Below are positions 5,061 to 25,226 of a DNA stretch of 25,240 nt, piece by piece. The translations under genes were made by a program, and so were the position numbers. Within the stretch, counting starts at the first letter, position 1. Each line of letters opens with the position of its first letter. The notes below the pieces were generated by a model, which was not told the DNA's origin, did not search any database, and was given only the letters and a program-made list of their open reading frames with translations. Source of the stretch: a virus (lineage: Duplodnaviria; Caudoviricetes); the IMG/VR virus record IMGVR_UViG_3300032216_000801, positions 1-25,240 of that record, one strand, 5' to 3'.

Positions 5061-5888
5061 TTATCTAGCGTTGATTAGCTGACTTACGTCACCTTCAAAA
5101 GTATAACTACCCACATGGTTAAGTTTAGTATTAGGATCTAACCAAATCTCTCCACCAAGTTTTTGCCAACGACGGCAGAAAGTATAGTCTTCTGATAAGT
5201 ACCGATTATCATCTGGATCTAAGATAGTATCAAATAGGGCATAACAATGCTTATTAAGTTTAGGATCAATATTAGAATCATTCCTATAGTGAAGCTCAGG
5301 GTGAGCTTTAACCATTTTTTCAATTGTTTCTCGCTTGATTAGGAAGAAACCTGTAGAAGCATCTAGAACCTCTACTGCTCCGTTTTCTACACGAATTTGT
5401 CTAGTCTCAGGATCTACAAACTTAAAGTTAATAGCATACTGAATTGGTAGAGCTTTTTTAGGATAAGCTCCTGCCATAATAGGTTTATCATAAGCTAGAG
5501 CTCGAAGCATATCTTCTGGTTGGAACTCAATATCTGAGTCAATAAACATAAGATGTGTGCAGTCGCTATCTAGAAACATAGCAGTAAGTATATTTCTTGC
5601 TCTAGTAATTAAGCTCTCATTACGAAGAGTAGTAATTCTAAAGTTAATCCCATGTTGCATAAATACTTGCGACATTTTAAACATACTTAAAAAGTACTGA
5701 TCTGTCAGCATACCGCCATAGCATGGCGTAGCAAAGAACACATTATGTTTTCTAAGCATATCTAAGTCAATTATAGCTTTACCTTCGCCTACTGACTTAA
5801 AAGCACCAAAACTTTTACCCTGTACCGGCTCACTATTAGCATTAGTACCTACACCTGATGGTTTAATAGTTGATAGTGGCTTTTTCAT
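5061..5888 (-). CDS. GT-A fold glycosyltransferase-like protein
   Basis: VFFATPCYGG, ESLITRARN, THLMFIDSDI (DxD), AGAYPKK, TGFFLIKR, YLSEDYTFCRRW, NHVG; the start overlaps the D11 stop (ATGA). Confidence 0.85.
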   Translation of the reverse strand: MKKPLSTIKPSGVGTNANSEPVQGKSFGAFKSVGEGKAIIDLDMLRKHNVFFATPCYGGMLTDQYFLSMFKMSQVFMQHGINFRITTLRNESLITRARNILTAMFLDSDCTHLMFIDSDIEFQPEDMLRALAYDKPIMAGAYPKKALPIQYAINFKFVDPETRQIRVENGAVEVLDASTGFFLIKRETIEKMVKAHPELHYRNDSNIDPKLNKHCYALFDTILDPDDNRYLSEDYTFCRRWQKLGGEIWLDPNTKLNHVGSYTFEGDVSQLINAR

Positions 5889-14446: not shown

Positions 14447-14478
14447 AATAAAAAAGGGATGGTGTTGCCACCATCCCT
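14447..14478 (-). terminator. Rho-independent terminator after D5
   Basis: Minus strand AGGGATGGTG-GCAA-CACCATCCCT-TTTTTATT: perfect 10-bp stem, GNRA tetraloop, U-tract. Confidence 0.92.
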
Positions 14479-17157: not shown

Positions 17158-17475
17158 CTATGATTGTTGTTTCTTATTCTTAATTACGTTTAGCATACGT
17201 TCGGCATAGTAAATAATTTTATTTAAATCATACTCATCATCAATTCCATCTTTTTCGCCTAAACGATAAGCAGCTTTAAAAATGTTACCTCTAGCAAAGT
17301 TCATATCTTTAAATTCTATAATATCATTTAAAGTACTAGCTCCTATAGGAAAATCGTAGTATGCAGTAGCTTTGCCATCAGAAGTTATTTTATTGTTAGC
17401 TTCTTTATCCATACGCTTAATACCATCTTCATAGCTTTCTTGTGTAAACGGTTCAAGATCAAGTGTTATATCCAT
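17158..17475 (-). CDS. DUF3310-family protein (T7 gp1.7-like nucleotide kinase domain)
   Basis: SDG..TAYYDFP, MNFARGNIFKAAYRLGEK, DLNKIIYYAER are typical of DUF3310. Confidence 0.8.
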   Translation of the reverse strand: MDITLDLEPFTQESYEDGIKRMDKEANNKITSDGKATAYYDFPIGASTLNDIIEFKDMNFARGNIFKAAYRLGEKDGIDDEYDLNKIIYYAERMLNVIKNKKQQS

Positions 17476-17779
17476 TTAGTTTTTTCCTAAGTGCTTCTAC
17501 AAGTTTTGTTAAGTTTTCTTTTTTATTAAGATTAGTACCGTCTATATCTATACTAAGCATACTTTCTAACTCTCTAAGCATAGTTTTAACAGTCTGCGCT
17601 TTAACTTCTTCTTCAAGTTGTGGTTTTTCATATACTTTAAGTTGTACTAGCTTACTTATTACACTTCTATATCCTTTTTCAAAATGTTCTGCAAGCTGGT
17701 GCACGTCTTTTATCTGCTCTGTTGTATATAAGGTAACTAATTCTAGTTCTTGCTCACTACTCCATGTTTTTATACTCAT
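17459..17779 (-). CDS. D3: T5 D3-like DNA-binding protein (start corrected to MSIKTW...)
   Basis: WSSEQELELVTLY...LAEHFEKGYRSVISKL resembles recalled T5 D3; ATG 17779 has SD GGAG, whereas the track start lies inside the upstream gene. Confidence 0.7.
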   Translation of the reverse strand: MSIKTWSSEQELELVTLYTTEQIKDVHQLAEHFEKGYRSVISKLVQLKVYEKPQLEEEVKAQTVKTMLRELESMLSIDIDGTNLNKKENLTKLVEALRKKLNGYNT

Positions 17780-17781
17780 TG

Positions 17782-18045
17782 TTACTCCAATTCTAATTCT
17801 AGTTGCGTGCTCCAAACATATCTCTGAGCTACGGCTTCAGCAGCTGATTCTAACAATGGTATTAGTGATGTTACTTCATCAGCTTGAAAAGAAAATCCTG
17901 TTTTAGTGGGGTACCATTGACCGGTATCCCCATCCATTGCATATTCTCTAATATGTAAATAAGTAATATCTCTAAACTCGTTTAGAGTTACTTTAACAGC
18001 ATTTCCATTATATTTATGAAAAGCGGTTCCAAAGTCTATATTCAT
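17782..18045 (-). CDS. PC4/p15-like ssDNA-binding protein
   Basis: VKVTLNEFRDITYLHIREY...WYPTKTGFSF is the PC4-fold signature; also present near the ligase in T5. Confidence 0.88.
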   Translation of the reverse strand: MNIDFGTAFHKYNGNAVKVTLNEFRDITYLHIREYAMDGDTGQWYPTKTGFSFQADEVTSLIPLLESAAEAVAQRYVWSTQLELELE

Positions 18046-19205
18046 TATTTTAATCTATTAGCTGTTCTACTAGCTATAGATGTAAATATATCTAAGTATT
18101 GTTTTGCTACAGCTTCCCACGTATTACGTGTTTCTGTAAATCTAGCTTTTACTAAAATAGTTTCTCTATCATGGCTATGATATATATATTTCATAGCTTT
18201 TAGTAAATATTCTGGGTTTGGTTCTTTTATAAACGTATGCGTACTCATCATAGTAGTAGCATCACCAGGTTTAAGAGCAAATAGGTGATTATCTTCAATG
18301 TTAACTGGTACATTAGCTACAGGAATTCTAAAACCTTTATCTTTAGGTATAAAGTCTTCTGTAGGACCTTCAGCAGATATAATAGGTACACAGCCACAAG
18401 CCATGGCTTCTTGTATATGCATACCAAAACCCTCAGCTCTGTATGGGTGTACTAAAACTTTACTAGCCTTATATATGTCAGACATTTCTGTAGAAGATAA
18501 CTCATCGTCAATATATATAATTTCACCACAATCGGTTTGATACTGTATTTTAATTATTTCAGATAGCAGATTAGACTGACCATAGATTCTGGGATTATCT
18601 TTTATAATTAACTTAGCATTATCTGATCTACTAAATGCTTTTGACCAAGCATTTATAAGTATATCTAAGCCTTTTCTCCACTGAGAGTTACCTACATATA
18701 CAAAGTTTACCTTATCAGGGTTTATACCAAATTTATTTACACTACCGCCTGGCTCTGTATTAAATACTTTATCATCATACCCATTAGGCACAACAAATAA
18801 ATTATCAGGACGTAAACCCCCATTGCTGAATACATTTTTACAATAGTTACTAGGAACTATCAATGCGTCGGCAAATGTTTCAAATTTATACTGCCATTCA
18901 AATAGTGCTTTTGAGTATTCCCATGGTTGAATGTATATTATTTTTGTGTGTTCACTAACAGGCCATGACCAAATAGGTGGATAGCTATGACGTATCTGAA
19001 CATCAGGAATTACATCTTCATTTAATTTTTCTAGACTCTTTAAAACTCTAACTTCGGACTTATCTAAAGCATACAAGGGATCATAAGAATCTAAAGGTAT
19101 AATACGTATATCTATCCCTAGTTTAACTAGTTGTAGTATTATATTCCTATTCACTATACTTAAAGAGTGATTATCGTAAAACTTACCAATAAACTCTATG
19201 AACAT
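18045..19205 (-). CDS. GT-B fold glycosyltransferase, family GT4
   Basis: VVPNGYD, FVYVGNSQWRKGLDIL, HPYRAEGFGMHIQEAMACG (EX7E), TWEAVAKQY. Confidence 0.92.
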   Translation of the reverse strand: MFIEFIGKFYDNHSLSIVNRNIILQLVKLGIDIRIIPLDSYDPLYALDKSEVRVLKSLEKLNEDVIPDVQIRHSYPPIWSWPVSEHTKIIYIQPWEYSKALFEWQYKFETFADALIVPSNYCKNVFSNGGLRPDNLFVVPNGYDDKVFNTEPGGSVNKFGINPDKVNFVYVGNSQWRKGLDILINAWSKAFSRSDNAKLIIKDNPRIYGQSNLLSEIIKIQYQTDCGEIIYIDDELSSTEMSDIYKASKVLVHPYRAEGFGMHIQEAMACGCVPIISAEGPTEDFIPKDKGFRIPVANVPVNIEDNHLFALKPGDATTMMSTHTFIKEPNPEYLLKAMKYIYHSHDRETILVKARFTETRNTWEAVAKQYLDIFTSIASRTANRLK

Positions 19206-20032
19206 TATTTAACTCTTTCTAAATGCTGTAAGTAATAACTTTCTAATTGGTTTTTAGGTACAGCAAATAGCTTAGGCCATTGCGCACTACCCAATCCTGA
19301 AGTTTTAAAATTGCGTAACTCTGTATAGTTGTCTAAAGCAACTTGGTCCCATATTTTATAAAATGGATCACTTTCTACTATATCTGAGTGTCCTATGTTA
19401 TGTATTTTCTCATGTAGATCAGCTTTATCACGGCATAGACTCCAGTGTAATGCTACTAGAGGGCTTTGTACTCTGTTAGCTCCACCAGCACTAAGATTAG
19501 ACCATCTAGCATATGTAAATGTATTATTCTTATGAGTCATGACTCCTTGGTTTTCACCAAAGAATGGTGTGTTATCTTCATTTGCTATAACTAATACAGT
19601 ATCATCAATAATTTTATATGGGGTAGCCCATATCATACATACATCTACTTTACTAGCATACCTGCTAACTACGGGACAAAAAGAGTTAAAAAAATCTTTT
19701 GCGTTAAGTAGCTGTTCGTCAGCATCAATACTTATTATCCAGTCATTGCTACAATGACTCTTTAAAAAATTACGCTCATAGTTATCATTTTCAATGGCTA
19801 TAGTAGATTTGTGAAAATTATCTTCTATAATTGATATTTTACCATCAGTATCTATACTCTGTAATTCTTCCCATAGTTTTGACTCATCAAACTTAAAATT
19901 GTTACCACTCCAAGTAATTCTAGATTCATCTAAACCTAAAACTATTTCATCTACATACTTATAGTATTTACTTATGCTACTAGCTAGATAGTGTGCGTCA
20001 TAGCTTATTAAACTTATAGCACTTATATTCAT
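19205..20032 (-). CDS. GT-A fold glycosyltransferase, GT2-like
   Basis: VDEIVLGLD, ERNFLKSHCSNDWIISIDADE (DxD), ALHWS. Confidence 0.82.
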   Translation of the reverse strand: MNISAISLISYDAHYLASSISKYYKYVDEIVLGLDESRITWSGNNFKFDESKLWEELQSIDTDGKISIIEDNFHKSTIAIENDNYERNFLKSHCSNDWIISIDADEQLLNAKDFFNSFCPVVSRYASKVDVCMIWATPYKIIDDTVLVIANEDNTPFFGENQGVMTHKNNTFTYARWSNLSAGGANRVQSPLVALHWSLCRDKADLHEKIHNIGHSDIVESDPFYKIWDQVALDNYTELRNFKTSGLGSAQWPKLFAVPKNQLESYYLQHLERVK

Positions 20033-20754
20033 TAAGTAGTTGCTTTCTCTATTTTAGCTATTTTCTTTTTTATACTTATAATAAGTAATCCAGATTGGTA
20101 CTGAGTATGATCACTTAATCCGCCAGAAACTCTTTGTTTTTTCCACTCAACCTCAAACTTATTAGCGTTATCTGCTATTACTTCGTCTAGTTCTTTTGCG
20201 TTTTTTACGTTAGAGTAGTTAGAGAATATAATAACAGCTTCTGAGCTCAGTGCTTTATATACAGTACTAAAGAACGCTTCATATGTTTCTTTATTAGCAG
20301 GTGTTATATCAAAGTAGCATACATCAAACTTAGGTTGACTTTTCCAATCTACATCTTGAAAATTGTTTTCAATTATATTAATGTTATTAATATTTACTGC
20401 GCTTGTTGGTTCATTATATCTTTGAATATTAGCAGCTAATTGACTTTTCATATTCTCCCATATAGTACCCTCTGGAGCAGTACGTTTTGGCTCACGTTCG
20501 TCATATGAATAATTCTCTACTCCTACTAGTTTAGTAGTAGGATTACCATACGCAGCGCTTATGATGGTAGATCCTTTATATACTCCTAGCTCTAAGTAAT
20601 TAGTACCTTCCTTAGAGCATATGTTATTAATTAATGCTTTAAGTCTTGGAGAACTTATACCAAATAAGTCTCTTTCACGTTCGCTAATTTTAGACTGCCC
20701 GTTATCAGATAGCTCTAATACAGCAGTAACAAATTCTTGTGTTAGTTTAACCAT
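20032..20754 (-). CDS. Class I SAM-dependent methyltransferase (Methyltransf_24-like, often sugar O-methylation)
   Basis: Motif I YLELGVYKGST, LVGVEN, FDVCYFD; no DPPY/NPPY or PC motif of DNA methylases; SD AAGGA. Confidence 0.82.
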   Translation of the reverse strand: MVKLTQEFVTAVLELSDNGQSKISERERDLFGISSPRLKALINNICSKEGTNYLELGVYKGSTIISAAYGNPTTKLVGVENYSYDEREPKRTAPEGTIWENMKSQLAANIQRYNEPTSAVNINNINIIENNFQDVDWKSQPKFDVCYFDITPANKETYEAFFSTVYKALSSEAVIIFSNYSNVKNAKELDEVIADNANKFEVEWKKQRVSGGLSDHTQYQSGLLIISIKKKIAKIEKATT

Positions 20755-20781
20755 TTTATTATCCTTATTTATATAGATATT

Positions 20782-21525
20782 TTAACTATATTTAATTTCT
20801 TTGTCCAGAGTTTTATAAAATTGTGAATTAGACCATTTGGTCTGTAGAGTAGATAGATTTCTCATTTCAGCAGCAGCTTTGTTGGTATCTCTGGCTTTTA
20901 TTTGTTTATTGTCTCTAGATTCGTGGTGAAATAATCTAACGGGGATCTGGTAGATTGCCTCTCCAGCTTTCCTAGCTGTAAGACAAAAATCTACATCTCT
21001 GTTATATGTCCACTCATACTCTGGTGAAAAGCTTCCAACGGCATTGATGAAACGTCGTCGAAGAAAACAACCTCCAAACGTTGTCCATGCAACTTCTCGG
21101 ACTTTCTGGTACTGATCTTTATCACTTTCCAGTTCTGATTTAAATGTAGCGCCGTTTTCAAGGATGATACCGCTACCGTAATGATCCGGCCTATTATTGG
21201 TAAATTTTCCGCCTGCGGATTGGATGAAAAAGTCACCGTTATCATCCGTTGCGGGGTACAATAGCAAGCAACCAAACATTCCTGCTTCTGGGTATTTTTT
21301 GACATATTCTAAAACTTCCTCAAACCAACCATCGTGGTGTGGTGTCATGTCTGAATGAAGAATAAATATATCTTCTTCAGGAAATTTACGCCACATCTTT
21401 TCAAACATTAGATCAGAGCCAATACCTCCAGTATCTAGTTCATAATAAACATCATATTCCCAAAATAACTGTTTATGCACAGCTATTTCTTGTTCATTTA
21501 TATATGGAGTAATTATTTTGACCAT
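20782..21525 (-). CDS. GT2-family glycosyltransferase
   Basis: KIITPY, FILHSD, GCLLLYP...IQSAGG, VAWTTFGGCFLRR, DVDFCLTARKAG, LFHHES. Confidence 0.88.
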   Translation of the reverse strand: MVKIITPYINEQEIAVHKQLFWEYDVYYELDTGGIGSDLMFEKMWRKFPEEDIFILHSDMTPHHDGWFEEVLEYVKKYPEAGMFGCLLLYPATDDNGDFFIQSAGGKFTNNRPDHYGSGIILENGATFKSELESDKDQYQKVREVAWTTFGGCFLRRRFINAVGSFSPEYEWTYNRDVDFCLTARKAGEAIYQIPVRLFHHESRDNKQIKARDTNKAAAEMRNLSTLQTKWSNSQFYKTLDKEIKYS

Positions 21526-22529
21526 TAAATTAACTGTTGAGTCCAGGTTTTAGGGGTTTTATCTGTAATTAATTCAAGAGGTAAGTGATATTTAAACTCT
21601 CTTACTCGTGGTTTAATCCATTGAACCATGTGATGAATTGTCTGCTCTACTGTTATATCTGCACTATAATTAAACTCTCTACGAATTTTATCACTAGAGC
21701 AATAAGCATTTTTTACTTCTATAGGTCTATCAGGATAGTGTTCAAATCTAGGTTCTACATTAGCTTCTTTACATACTATATTAGCTAACTGTTTAATAGA
21801 TATTTCATTATGATCAGGCCCTATATTATATACTTGACCAGATAAATCTCTATCGCTTAGCATAATTTTTTCAATAGCTTTTATACAGTCAATTGCATTA
21901 GAAAATGATCGTTTTTGCTCACCGTCACCATATACTATTACAGGCTTGCCTTGTAAAGTTCTATTTATCATAATTCCTACTACATTTCTAAAAGGGTCAA
22001 AATAACGTTGACCAATTCCTATAACATTGTGTGGAACTACTGTAACATAGTTTAACCCATGAATTTTTGATAATAAAGCAAGATGTTGTTCTGCTTGTAC
22101 TTTAGCTAATCCGTAGGGGTCTACTGGTTTAGGGTTCATATCTTCTGTAAACGGCGGAGTTTGATCACCATAACGAGCCATAGAGCTACAATTAATTAAT
22201 AATCTTACGTTATTGTGTAGGGCTGCAACAGCTACAGACAGCGTACCAGATACAATACTAGTAGCAGTAATTGTAGGAGAAAATACACTCAAACCCTCAT
22301 AAGGAAGTGCAGCTGCATGAAATACAACATCTGCCTCTTGCATTACTGACTTTAATAACTCTGTATCAGTAATATCTCCTTGATAATAAATAGCGTCTTT
22401 TGGTACGTTATCTTCTACACCACCAATACCGTTATCAATACCTATAACTTCATAACCACCTTTAGCTAATAGATACTTAGCTAAGGTACTACCTAATAAT
22501 CCTGATATACCTGTTATAAAAACTTTCAT
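21525..22529 (-). CDS. NAD-dependent NDP-sugar epimerase/dehydratase (extended SDR)
   Basis: TGISGLLG (GxxGxxG), VFHAAA, SSMARYG, YGLAK (YxxxK), NVIG, YGDGEQKRSF, VYNIG. Confidence 0.93.
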   Translation of the reverse strand: MKVFITGISGLLGSTLAKYLLAKGGYEVIGIDNGIGGVEDNVPKDAIYYQGDITDTELLKSVMQEADVVFHAAALPYEGLSVFSPTITATSIVSGTLSVAVAALHNNVRLLINCSSMARYGDQTPPFTEDMNPKPVDPYGLAKVQAEQHLALLSKIHGLNYVTVVPHNVIGIGQRYFDPFRNVVGIMINRTLQGKPVIVYGDGEQKRSFSNAIDCIKAIEKIMLSDRDLSGQVYNIGPDHNEISIKQLANIVCKEANVEPRFEHYPDRPIEVKNAYCSSDKIRREFNYSADITVEQTIHHMVQWIKPRVREFKYHLPLELITDKTPKTWTQQLI

Positions 22530-23317
22530 CGGTTATTCTCTTCGTTTAAATACTGCTTAGCCAAGTTATACCAGTCTACATAAGGAGCTATACAGTTATT
22601 TTGTAAATGTGTAGACCAGCCTGGAATAGGAGTTAACGCTTTTACCATTTTAAAAGCTCTCCAAGTCCAGCCATCATCAGCAAATACACTAGCTTTTAAA
22701 ATATCATATTTAAAATGTAGCCATACTTTACCCGTAGCTAATAGTGTAGGAGTAGCTGACTGCACAGTACGCATATATCCAAATTTAGTTAAGTATAGCT
22801 CAGTATTTCTAGTGTTATCCATATAGGAGTCGGGATAATCTTGTGGTACAAAGAACCCGTCATAGCCATCTGCATACAGTTCTTTAATCTGAGCTATAGC
22901 ATTAGGCATATGCAGATAGTCATCATTAGCTAAGTAATATAGATCATCAGGATTTTTTTCTATAACTTCCATCATATATACATACTGAGGTATAAAATGA
23001 TTTATGCGTATTTCACAAAACTCTGGATAAGGATGTTTACCATATGGTGGAGTAAATTGATCTATACTAGGAATTTCTTCTACTATTAGCTGAGTTTTAC
23101 AAGTTTTTCTTAACCATGCCATTGTTTCTTCTGTTACAGCAGCAGCTAATAAATGTATTGTATCAGTCTTATCTAATCCTATCTGAAATGATAGCCAACA
23201 GCTTTTTAAAATATCGAGCTTACTTAGGTCCATAAACCTACTAGCTACCGGCGCCATGTCTTTATTTACGCTAATAGGAGAATTATTAGCTTCAGAAACC
23301 ATATAAAATATGTGCAT
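22526..23317 (-). CDS. Putative divergent GT-A fold glycosyltransferase
   Basis: LYYLANDDYLH (DD after a hydrophobic strand), DYPDSY, TPIPGWSTH; embedded in a glycan cluster. Confidence 0.6.
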   Translation of the reverse strand: MHIFYMVSEANNSPISVNKDMAPVASRFMDLSKLDILKSCWLSFQIGLDKTDTIHLLAAAVTEETMAWLRKTCKTQLIVEEIPSIDQFTPPYGKHPYPEFCEIRINHFIPQYVYMMEVIEKNPDDLYYLANDDYLHMPNAIAQIKELYADGYDGFFVPQDYPDSYMDNTRNTELYLTKFGYMRTVQSATPTLLATGKVWLHFKYDILKASVFADDGWTWRAFKMVKALTPIPGWSTHLQNNCIAPYVDWYNLAKQYLNEENNR

Positions 23318-23326
23318 TATATACCT

Positions 23327-23947
23327 TTATCTATTTATTTTTAAAATTATACCAGATTGAAATAGTTCATTGTCATTTATATTATCAAATACGCATTCAC
23401 CAGCACTAATCATATTATCACTACCTATATTTACTTTTTCAGTAATTATACTATTTGGTTGTAATATGTTGTTATTACCAATAATACATTGATTCATAAT
23501 TCCTGCATATGGTTGAATTATATTATGATTACCTATTTTACACCTATTATGTACACTAGAGTAAGAACTAAATGAATTAAAATTGCCTATATTGGCTATA
23601 CCTTGTATAGAGCTAAAAGGTAAGAATAGATTACCTACTCCTAATATACTTGTTGCAGATATGTGTGAACTATCAGAATATATATTTGGAAAATGTGTTT
23701 TTATAGGCTCATACGTTTTTAAAAAATAACTAAGTAATTTATGACGCCATACAGTATTTTGAGTACCTACTATAAAAGCGGCATAAGGATCATGCTTAAA
23801 AGGGTATATACCTTCTTCACTAATGATAAAAGCCTTATCACCATTTAAAGTGATAAAGCCACAAAACTTGTACTTATTATTTTTTAGAAATATATGATCG
23901 AATACTTCGTTGGCAAATCCGCCGTTTCCTAGTATATATAAATTCAT
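23327..23947 (-). CDS. PglD/NeuD-like sugar acetyltransferase (left-handed beta-helix)
   Basis: N-terminal ILGNGGFANEV Rossmann-like segment followed by hexapeptide repeats (LGVGN, IGNFN, IGNHN, IGNNN, IGSDN). Confidence 0.82.
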   Translation of the reverse strand: MNLYILGNGGFANEVFDHIFLKNNKYKFCGFITLNGDKAFIISEEGIYPFKHDPYAAFIVGTQNTVWRHKLLSYFLKTYEPIKTHFPNIYSDSSHISATSILGVGNLFLPFSSIQGIANIGNFNSFSSYSSVHNRCKIGNHNIIQPYAGIMNQCIIGNNNILQPNSIITEKVNIGSDNMISAGECVFDNINDNELFQSGIILKINR

Positions 23948-23961
23948 TACTTGTATTCTGC

Positions 23962-24387
23962 TTAGCCACTACAATTAGTGTAACCACACGTATCACTATA
24001 TCTATCACTGCTAGAAATAAAACCATTAGCACCTATTGATCCAGTGCTACCAATAGAATAACTTATCCCACTTACCGTTGATTCACCGCCACAAGTAATT
24101 CTCATCTGAGTTGGACATTTCATATCATAACAAACATAACCCATAATACCCTCTAAATTTATACCACACTTCGAGCATGACTTGATATTAGGCCAAGTTG
24201 CTTCGTGAGTTCGTTTGAACGGATCATCAGGTCTGGGGTTTGCTGCCGTGGGATATTTTACATATGGCGGTGTTGGGATTGTCGTAATAGTTAAAGGAAC
24301 AGGTTGTTTAGATCCTTCTTGGAAACCCGCATCATATGCAGATTTTAACATATCTCTATTTAATTTAAACCATTCTTCAAATGTCAT
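23962..24387 (-). CDS. Hypothetical protein with a Cys-rich zinc-ribbon-like motif
   Basis: 141 aa; CSKC-x11-C-x4-CP motif; Pro/Thr-rich linker; Gly/Ser-rich tail; SD-like GAG. Confidence 0.7.
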   Translation of the reverse strand: MTFEEWFKLNRDMLKSAYDAGFQEGSKQPVPLTITTIPTPPYVKYPTAANPRPDDPFKRTHEATWPNIKSCSKCGINLEGIMGYVCYDMKCPTQMRITCGGESTVSGISYSIGSTGSIGANGFISSSDRYSDTCGYTNCSG

Positions 24388-24408
24388 ATTATTCTCATTT
24401 ATAAGTTA

Positions 24409-24580
24409 ATGGCCCGTTCTGTTTCAAGGTGGAACCATACCCAACGGCATTAAGCTGCTAGAGCGTAAGCCATAGGTGCTGAATTTTCATTTGCACTTAT
24501 CATTTTTCTTGCGGTTACAGTCGCTTGCTCACTGGCTCCTGGTTTCCTCGTACTCAACATGTCGAACCTATTTCGCCCCC
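24409..24580 (-). ncRNA. ssrA: tmRNA coding piece (5' acceptor strand plus tag ORF) of a circularly permuted two-piece tmRNA
   Basis: Begins GGGGGCGAAATAGGTTCGAC at 24580. ATAAGT precedes the resume codon; tag 24494-24450 is GCA AAT GAA AAT TCA GCA CCT ATG GCT TAC GCT CTA GCA GCT TAA = ANENSAPMAYALAA*. 3' structure ATGGTTC/GGGCCAT encloses CCTTGAAACAGAA. The 3' end is approximate. Confidence 0.95.
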
Positions 24581-24581
24581 A

Positions 24582-24794
24582 TCAAGAAGATTCTTTTGGT
24601 ACGTTGTAAGGTTTACCTTGAAATCTTTTATTCCAAGCTTTTCCTAAACTACCGTCTTCTCTTCCAGAATAAATAATAGTATATACGCCATTATTTGTTT
24701 GTTTATATGCTAAATCTACATTAGATATATTACTATCATGTTTCATATTAGCAGCTAATAAGGCTTTTTTACTAATTTTTATCTTTTTAGACAT
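24582..24794 (-). CDS. 70-aa basic hypothetical protein nested in the tmRNA intervening segment
   Basis: MSKKIKISKK...VPKESS*; SD AAGGA 5 nt upstream of ATG 24794; occupies 213 of the 225-nt segment; stop TGA lies 1 nt before tmRNA G1. Confidence 0.7.
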   Translation of the reverse strand: MSKKIKISKKALLAANMKHDSNISNVDLAYKQTNNGVYTIIYSGREDGSLGKAWNKRFQGKPYNVPKESS

Positions 24795-24805
24795 AAGAAT
24801 CCTTG

Positions 24806-24868
24806 TGGTGGAGGCGTCCGGTATCGCACCGGAGTCCATGCTGCATCTAATTTACGTAATCAGAGCTC
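24806..24868 (-). ncRNA. ssrA: tmRNA acceptor piece (T-arm, 3' acceptor strand, CCA)
   Basis: ...CAGCATG GAC TCCGG-TGCGATA-CCGGA CGCCTCC A CCA ends at 24806. CGCCTCC pairs with GGGGGCG, including the G3.U Ala determinant; discriminator A; CAGCATG pairs with CATGTTG of the coding piece. The 5' end is approximate. Confidence 0.93.
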
Positions 24869-25000
24869 TTCTATAATTTCAATAGTTGGTTCTTCAACTA
24901 CTAGTTCTGGTAAGTTTTCTACAGCTGCTCGTAGAACTGAAAAGTCTATATCATCAGTTTCAACTAGCACATAGTATTCAGTTAAGGTTGTTCTGGTCAA
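24860..25000 (-). CDS. Small acidic hypothetical protein, 46 aa (below the ORF-track cutoff)
   Basis: TTG start with AGGT 5 nt upstream; MTRTTLTEYYVLVETDDIDFSVLRAAVENLPELVVEEPTIEIIEEL*; codon use (CTA, GTA, GAA) like neighbours; fills the gap exactly. Confidence 0.55.
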   Translation of the reverse strand: MTRTTLTEYYVLVETDDIDFSVLRAAVENLPELVVEEPTIEIIEEL

Positions 25001-25226
25001 GACGTACCTGTTCTAGATGGCCTGTATGTGTAGACCAGTTAAAAATACGAAAAGCATTTTCTTCTAGATCCCACACCAGTTCCATACCATCAGGATAACT
25101 CTTTTCAGAGCCAGAGCCTATAATTTTTTCATCTAAGAAAGTATCAGGCAAATCTCGTAGATGTGCAAACAGCATTTCACGAATTTCGCCATTACGTTTT
25201 TTAAAAGTTCCTTTGAACGCTTTCAT
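24978..25226 (-). CDS. DUF2693/WYL-like SH3 beta-barrel small protein
   Basis: FKKRNGEIREM...LVWDLEENAFRIFNW signature; strong SD GGAGG. Confidence 0.75.
   Translation of the reverse strand: MKAFKGTFKKRNGEIREMLFAHLRDLPDTFLDEKIIGSGSEKSYPDGMELVWDLEENAFRIFNWSTHTGHLEQVRLDQNNLN

Follow-up and report, generated by a model that had tools for sequence, protein, structure and literature searches.

We analysed a glycan-building gene cluster in a 25,240-base virus record, IMGVR_UViG_3300032216_000801 (hereafter the window), the only stretch of this genome available to the analysis. The cluster is real and family-wide, and its function is predicted: kept vertically throughout a phage lineage, it may glycosylate phage-made proteins, most probably virion proteins, and not DNA, a reading to which we give about an even chance. 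The minus strand carries all seven open reading frames (ORFs) at 18045..23947, namely those for an acetyltransferase, a GT-A-fold glycosyltransferase (GT), a nucleoside diphosphate (NDP)-sugar epimerase, a GT2, an S-adenosylmethionine (SAM) methyltransferase, a second GT2-like enzyme and a GT4. The junctions between them are, in order, 9 nt, ATGA, TAATG, 27 nt, TAATG and TAATG, followed by TAATG into a PC4-like gene, so that the coordinates, the strand and an exact junction check confirm the seven genes and their tight junctions as described in an initial annotation of this sequence. That annotation had also seen no obvious transmembrane segments and no obvious terminator before the DUF3310 gene, and both observations were borne out. 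The 19-residue hydropathy maximum is at most 1.62 across the seven proteins (the top value comes from the Rossmann core of the epimerase), which leaves no clear transmembrane segment, and no terminator-like site was found on the minus strand from the GT4 gene to the DUF3310 gene. Co-transcription of the cluster with the replication genes is plausible from this arrangement. One hairpin with a T-run lies within the acetyltransferase gene (23860-23831), and a promoter scan of the window stayed at chance level (55 promoter-like matches versus 49.3 expected).

Pfam support is clear for the acetyltransferase, the epimerase and the GT4, weak for the methyltransferase, and little or none for the three GT-A calls. 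Four genes form a conserved core. The GT4 (GT-B) enzyme (18045..19205, minus strand; 386 aa; PF00534, E 1.9e-19; phrog_2170) has Streptomyces phage homologues. Next to it lies a GT-A/GT2-like GT (19205..20032, minus strand; 275 aa; TIGR04195, E 0.005), whose AlphaFold2 (AF2) model has a pLDDT of 92.5 and whose top six Foldseek matches are SunS/ThuS. Against SunS, VIA-align gave Z 14.6 and a root-mean-square deviation of 3.3 over 196 aligned positions at 12% identity, and the next non-SunS row had Z 12.4. The closest solved fold of this model is that of the peptide S-glycosyltransferase SunS, a hint, at the level of fold only, of a protein acceptor. The GT is a candidate initiating enzyme. The class I SAM methyltransferase (20032..20754, minus strand; 240 aa) matches Methyltransf_24 weakly (E 3e-4) and has a cyanophage homologue at E 1e-25. 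The fourth core member is a GT2-family enzyme (20782..21525, minus strand; 247 aa) that falls in ESM Atlas GT2 clusters and shows a mean column identity of 72% in alignment A3.

The other three genes make up a variable front end. An NDP-sugar epimerase/dehydratase of the extended short-chain dehydrogenase/reductase (SDR) type (21525..22529, minus strand; 334 aa) is recognised by PF01370 (E 6.5e-46) and NCBIfam. The GT-A-fold enzyme (22526..23317, minus strand; 263 aa; AF2 pLDDT 85.1) matches GT-A enzymes in Foldseek, and the alignment of its family shows an invariant DDY and a later His; it is probably an exchangeable transferase that travels with sugar-tailoring genes, and is our candidate for a cap transferase. 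The last protein (23327..23947, minus strand; 206 aa) is a hexapeptide-repeat homologue of NeuD/PglB/VioB-type left-handed beta-helix sugar acetyltransferases (TIGR03570, E 3.8e-23, below the cut-off). At the position of the family-motif His, which is present in 29 of 37 relative rows, the window protein has Asn. In PglD, this His is catalytic, and the window acetyltransferase is possibly degenerate.

Relatives carrying the SunS-like GT (542 database homologues) number at least 144 IMG/VR stretches and 302 metagenome stretches, of which the best 80 of the 144 and the best 80 of the 302 were retrieved. Locus counts refer to L001-L083 minus three duplicate fetches; the loci are not independent, since some are near-identical. 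The core order GT2-methyltransferase-GT2-GT4 was found in all 70 loci spanning it, and the whole family shares the placement of the cluster in front of T5-like replication genes. The TAATG coupling of GT4 to the PC4-like gene, which the initial annotation had pointed out, is present in the window but not general, as the two genes adjoin in only 12 of 77 loci. In the other 65, including most relatives, four genes stand between them: an IscA-like gene, an AspH-type oxygenase, a 457-aa protein and a second AspH-like gene (e.g. L035:12296-13669 and neighbours). Divergence of the 457-aa protein follows that of the ligase (0.65), and neither a family nor a PDB entry matched it.

The front end behaved differently. 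Between the GT-A enzyme and the core, a DegT aminotransferase is found in 41 of 47 loci and two SDRs, one of them RmlB-like, in 40 of 47, and some loci add WbqC, pyruvyl-, sulfo- or further methyltransferases. By the established functions of these families, the dehydratase, DegT and VioB-type acetyltransferase of the relatives constitute a pathway to a 4-acetamido-4,6-dideoxyhexose (viosamine-type sugar). The window has a reduced version, with no DegT, one SDR and the acetyltransferase carrying Asn for His. The multi-residue, methylated glycan made by soluble enzymes that had been suggested earlier is supported, but its possible acetylation is doubtful in the window genome, because the acetyltransferase lacks the motif His and the partner aminotransferase is missing.

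Identities were compared over 21 dereplicated loci (14 for the GT-A enzyme). The median identities of the three core GTs (0.68, 0.66 and 0.56) were near that of the ligase (0.64), and their Spearman correlations with ligase identity were 0.72 (the GT2 at 20782-21525), 0.67 and 0.63, compared with 0.69 for PC4. In contrast, the GT-A enzyme at 22526-23317 had a median identity of 0.32 and a correlation of -0.05. Since the core has identities near those of the ligase and tracks it, whereas the GT-A does not, the core appears to be old and vertical and the front end exchanged. Such a pattern agrees with an acceptor that is phage-encoded and conserved and an outer sugar that diversifies.

From the observed genes, folds, order and conservation pattern, we infer the activities, donor, acceptor and order of steps as follows. 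The cluster would build a short O-methylated oligosaccharide in the cytoplasm, with capsid, tail tube or fibres as the most probable targets. The SunS-like GT would place the first sugar on Ser, Thr or Cys of the acceptor, the GT2 at 20782-21525 and the GT4 would extend the constant core, and the methyltransferase would O-methylate it. The exchangeable GT-A enzyme would then add the variable cap, using a donor provided by the epimerase; in most relatives, the 4,6-dehydratase, DegT aminotransferase and N-acetyltransferase would make the viosamine-type 4-acetamido-4,6-dideoxyhexose for the cap donor. Early expression from the replication operon would ready the enzymes before the late proteins.

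By analogy, the cluster would work like virion glycosylation systems. Proven phage virion glycosylation is reported for actinobacteriophages, with capsid and tail tube as the reported targets of the Che8 and Corndog enzymes, according to the accessible text of four papers (PMC11600133, PMC11256854, PMC12619734, PMC10877033). As in the window core, the mycobacteriophages Che8 (gp108-110) and Corndog (gp35-38) have tandem soluble GTs, with three GTs and a Methyltransf_24/TylF domain; a Pfam Methyltransf_24 match of Corndog gp35 and Che8 gp108 is the sole link between their methyltransferases and that of the window. The primary study of mycobacteriophage virion glycosylation is reportedly that of Freeman et al. 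2023. In Che8, the structural and the glycosylation genes lie apart, the latter at the far end of the genome, so the distance of the window cluster from structural genes is no objection. Unlike these systems, the window encodes a GT4 among its four to five GTs, and also nucleotide-sugar enzymes and a swappable cap module; it belongs to a T5-like phage of a likely Gram-negative host, and its glycan acceptor is predicted. No GT sequence homology was detected between the two. In gene content, the Mimivirus/Megavirinae fibril clusters (R132-L143; the accessible part of PMC10117803) are also like the clusters of most relatives, as they combine a 4,6-dehydratase, an aminotransferase and an N-acetyltransferase with a methyltransferase, several GTs and sometimes a pyruvyl- or sulfotransferase, and are clade-variable at a fixed site. 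This likeness rests on gene content: the present virus is a bacteriophage with no fibril layer known, and the window itself has neither the aminotransferase nor the second dehydratase.

Several points weigh against virion proteins as the acceptor. The SunS likeness is at fold level only, at 12% identity and with a Z 2 units above unrelated GT-A rows, and the cluster lies in the early replication region. Separate glycan islands in the late region could serve the virion by themselves. When profiles of the four GTs and the methyltransferase were run against a 19-protein set, the Che8 and Corndog enzymes went undetected (best E 0.058). A DNA glycan could likewise have a constant core and a variable cap, and the acceptor is predicted from the genes of an uncultured family. 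Ser plus Thr content of tail and capsid proteins (0.14-0.22 versus 0.11) was dropped as a sign of glycosylation; it is not diagnostic, because T4 gp12 and the T5 fibre show it too.

An alternative that we consider unlikely is that the enzymes remodel a host surface glycan (O-antigen, lipopolysaccharide (LPS) core or capsule) on lipid-linked intermediates of the inner membrane, via a host flippase or ABC exporter, thereby blocking superinfection in a long latent period. All components are of O-antigen-cluster type, and a place in the early region would suit action on the host. Pathways of the O-antigen type commonly use soluble GTs, which are able to work on lipid-linked repeats. Missing membrane segments are thus no objection to a host surface role, and the absence of membrane proteins, from which the initial annotation took the acceptor to be probably cytoplasmic, is also compatible with a host lipid-linked acceptor. 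The same reading has been published, there without test, for comparable clusters of T4-like pelagimyophages and cyanophages, as far as the accessible text of these papers goes (PMC7029224, PMC7824862, PMC12801897). Those 'LPS-like' GT islands resemble the present loci in their aquatic origin, GTs, NDP-sugar epimerases, AspH-type oxygenases and ribosomal protein S21, and their function is unproven there. However, they are hypervariable tail-fibre islands, described in the accessible part of PMC7824862 as sporadic and polymorphic, whereas the core here is constant, vertical and fixed at the replication-operon head of a T5-like siphovirus. A three-GT core that tracks replication genes fits hypervariable host O-antigens poorly. 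Furthermore, no initiating membrane GT, flippase or polymerase was found among the neighbouring families scanned and, unlike in GtrABC/Oac serotype conversion, no flippase, undecaprenyl-phosphate GT or polytopic transferase was present in the seven proteins or the neighbours scanned. A glycan on a non-virion intracellular target, such as a host protein (e.g. a defence or surface-appendage protein), a phage replication protein, a small molecule or a glycolipid, seems quite unlikely. The early-region position, the action of SunS-type enzymes on small peptides, a weak GT4-conflict match (E 1.4e-4) and the many metabolic genes that relatives embed in the same region speak for it, but no candidate substrate is kept beside the cluster, and a glycan of several sugars whose cap can be exchanged would point to a surface that is recognised.

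The initial annotation had leaned towards a new DNA hypermodification, with the caveat that no base-hydroxymethylating enzyme was visible. The caveat holds in the window and in the relatives searched, and the lean is not supported; DNA hypermodification is disfavoured by the genomic evidence. The records searched for base-modifying enzymes are partial (3-71% complete), comprising 36 or 28 cluster-bearing and 21 capsid-linked ones. No Tet_JBP domain above the cut-off was found in the window, in the 36 cluster-bearing or in the 21 capsid-linked records, with Caulobacter phage Cr30 as the positive control; the single weak match, in G044, lies next to a tail-collar gene and was dismissed as an oxygenase of the prolyl-hydroxylase type (2OG-FeII_Oxy_3). 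Thymidylate-synthase-type hydroxymethylases were likewise not found, the only hits being full-length canonical ThyA in one of 28 cluster-bearing and one of 21 capsid-linked records (T4 gp42 was detected as the control). C5-methylases were absent from 28 cluster-bearing and 21 capsid-linked records (the control was detected in 9 of 14 genomes), and the TGT/DpdA family from 28 records. A Pfam scan of dereplicated ORFs above 70-110 aa in 21 records revealed no named base-modifying family, with many ORFs left without assignment; it did reveal ThyX or ThyA, dUTPase and reductase, of which ThyX or ThyA with dUTPase point to ordinary dTTP. The cluster GTs showed no homology to the T4 alpha- or beta-GT. 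The net charge of the four GT families (acidic, medians -7 to -17) was set aside as a sign of DNA binding and is uninformative, because the T4 alpha-GT is also acidic (-5).

Restriction-site avoidance gave a similar picture. For six-base palindromes with two or more C, with 49-kb stretches as controls, the ratio of observed to expected counts was 0.50 in the window (35 versus 70 expected) and 0.57-0.69 in seven relatives, near T5 (0.58) and unlike T4/RB69 (0.90-0.92); RB49 and HTVC008M gave 0.32 and 0.44. Here, we take T5 and RB49 to be unmodified and RB69 to be cytosine-modified, while the state of T4 is from its annotation. When synonymous codons were shuffled, the ratio was 0.57 for the window, 0.47 for T5 and 0.85 for T4. 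T4 DNA resists 94% of type II enzymes and 5-hydroxymethyldeoxyuridine DNA about 8%, according to the accessible text of PMC7653180; because the latter DNA stays sensitive to most enzymes, the test opposes global cytosine glycosylation and not sparse or thymine-linked marks. A depletion of GATATC was given no weight, as T4 has it as well.

What could remain of a DNA role centres on a fifth GT-A-type candidate (5061..5888, minus strand; 275 aa; phrog_1574, E 2e-45; Anp1, E 3e-5, below the cut-off), which the initial annotation had missed. Its gene lies between those for SSB and SbcD, and the protein carries DxD and EDY motifs. Each of the 7 relatives with sequence at this site has it, at 61-83% identity, a degree of conservation like that of the polymerase. 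If any GT of the window acts on DNA, this is the likeliest one. Profiles of this enzyme, the GT2 at 20782-21525, the methyltransferase and the 457-aa neighbour, searched against PDB sequences, returned nothing useful. It is decidedly unlikely, in our view, that the GTs put an oligosaccharide on a subset of DNA bases, using a handle whose source is neither TET/JBP nor a thymidylate-synthase-type enzyme but, for example, the AspH-like oxygenases or the 457-aa protein, with the fifth GT possibly initiating. Such a role would suit the fixed position at the replication-module head and that of the fifth GT. Its phrog_1574 homologues in Cr30 and phiN3 are also among replication genes, between gp46/47 and the sliding clamp, and the enzyme searches covered partial genomes only. 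Phage DNA sugar hypermodification systems (T4 gp42 with alpha/beta-GT; GT clusters linked to 5mYOX or ThyS) likewise place GT-A and GT-B enzymes near replication genes, and DNA di- and trisaccharides exist in phages, as the accessible part of Pyle et al. (bioRxiv 10.1101/2023.12.21.572611) describes. However, that source also regards GT contigs without a 5mYOX or ThyS neighbour as less likely to act on DNA; here no TET/5mYOX, hydroxymethylase or C5-methylase was found in the records searched, and restriction-type palindromes are avoided. The AspH genes are absent from the window, G001, G005 and G035. The fifth-GT family also occurs without Tet_JBP in phiN3 and HTVC027P, fused to FkbM beside a collagen fibre in G037, and among tail-collar genes in ACG-2014f. 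We hold very unlikely the specific version in which a family-wide methylated oligosaccharide with an exchangeable amino-sugar cap would sit at selected DNA sites, on a handle made without TET or hydroxymethylase, started by the fifth GT and too sparse to end restriction-site avoidance. In Cr30, a Tet_JBP domain (NC_025422.1:59584-60027; E 9e-23) lies about 6 kb from the unannotated phrog_1574 GT and palindrome avoidance is weak (0.85); the DNA of this phage may be hypermodified.

Apart from the cluster, the window shows a T5-type replication module. Its first gene encodes a PC4-like protein (17782..18045, minus strand; PF02229, E 3.6e-11), and the gene at 17459-17779, earlier labelled D3, weakly matches a D5-like PHROG. 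The module, downstream of the cluster, has a T5-type gene order and includes D2-like, D5-like, ligase, D10 and SbcCD genes, and a strong terminator-like hairpin after the D5-like gene (14455-14478) splits the module. The family A polymerase is about 40% identical to those of T5-like phages, and the capsid protein of the relative G001 is 27-28% identical to T5-like ones. Judged by replication order, polymerase and this capsid protein, the window phage is a distant T5-like (Demerecviridae-like) phage. Upstream of the cluster, a Cys-rich 141-aa ORF of no confident family (23962-24387, minus strand) lies 14 nt from the acetyltransferase gene, and relatives fill this slot with different genes. It is preceded by a permuted two-piece alphaproteobacterial-type transfer-messenger RNA (tmRNA; 24408..24867, minus strand) with a tag ending in YALAA and a 225-nt intervening segment, which holds a basic 64-aa ORF (24582-24776) also seen in L001. 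A tmRNA was called in 20 of 83 loci, with intervening lengths of 16-256 nt. Just upstream of it lies a small WYL_2-like protein (24978-25226, minus strand) kept in 29 loci, with ribosomal protein S21 beside it in many relatives.

The window phage is a member of a large family of T5-like aquatic siphoviruses that is uncultured, with a likely alphaproteobacterial host as judged from the tmRNA and gene content. Two of the cluster's GTs, among them the SunS-like one, searched for in 50,697 GenBank phages, had no GenBank phage match, so no cultured family member was found there. Two cellular-genome matches, on contigs of 2.7 and 6.3 kb from metagenome-assembled genomes, had phage gene order and probably represent phage DNA that was binned with them. 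Among the searchable relatives the longest is G001, a siphovirus of 80 kb (71% complete) with a T5-like capsid protein. Metagenome contigs of 92-175 kb carry the cluster, including JACCDQ010113532.1 (175 kb) and VTLG01005642.1 (126 kb). CheckV implies a length of about 113 kb; G001 and G037 add up to about 119 kb, with no circle-closing overlap seen, and G037 stops before the cluster. Relatives also encode ribosomal protein S21, TctA and cytochrome b, and G002, G007, G010 and G011 (L172, L282, L291, L292) have genes for cytochrome b, curli CsgF/CsgG, serine hydroxymethyltransferase and TROVE/Ro60.

Further sugar genes occur in the late region of relatives. In G001, a tailoring island at 47-52 kb (L168:9261-14140) directly follows the tail-fibre genes and comprises a capsule-synthesis-type GT, a 2-oxoglutarate oxygenase, a sulfotransferase, an aminotransferase, a radical SAM protein, a CMP-sugar synthetase and a methyltransferase. 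G037 also has an island right after its tail-fibre genes, with different content (GT8 present). In addition, its 24.6-36.2 kb region (L410:5669-17160), between the small and large terminase genes, encodes a 1309-aa collagen-repeat fibre, four proteins of about 285 aa of no named family, a GT4-GT2 fusion and the GT-FkbM fusion. As far as gene content tells, these late-region islands show that the family invests in sugar chemistry near virion genes.

A literature search, with most subscription journals and supplements outside its reach, found no paper on such a cluster in T5-like aquatic phages. Glycan clusters of aquatic phages are usually assumed, without test, to modify host LPS or DNA. The present family, with a fixed core, a swappable cap, at least 144 IMG/VR stretches and genomic evidence against global DNA protection, offers a cleaner case, and its core is small and soluble enough for reconstitution. 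Should the virion carry the glycan, these widespread aquatic phages would wear a Mimivirus-like variable sugar coat, which would bear on the grazing, adsorption and decay of virus particles and would provide new peptide-acceptor glycosyltransferases.

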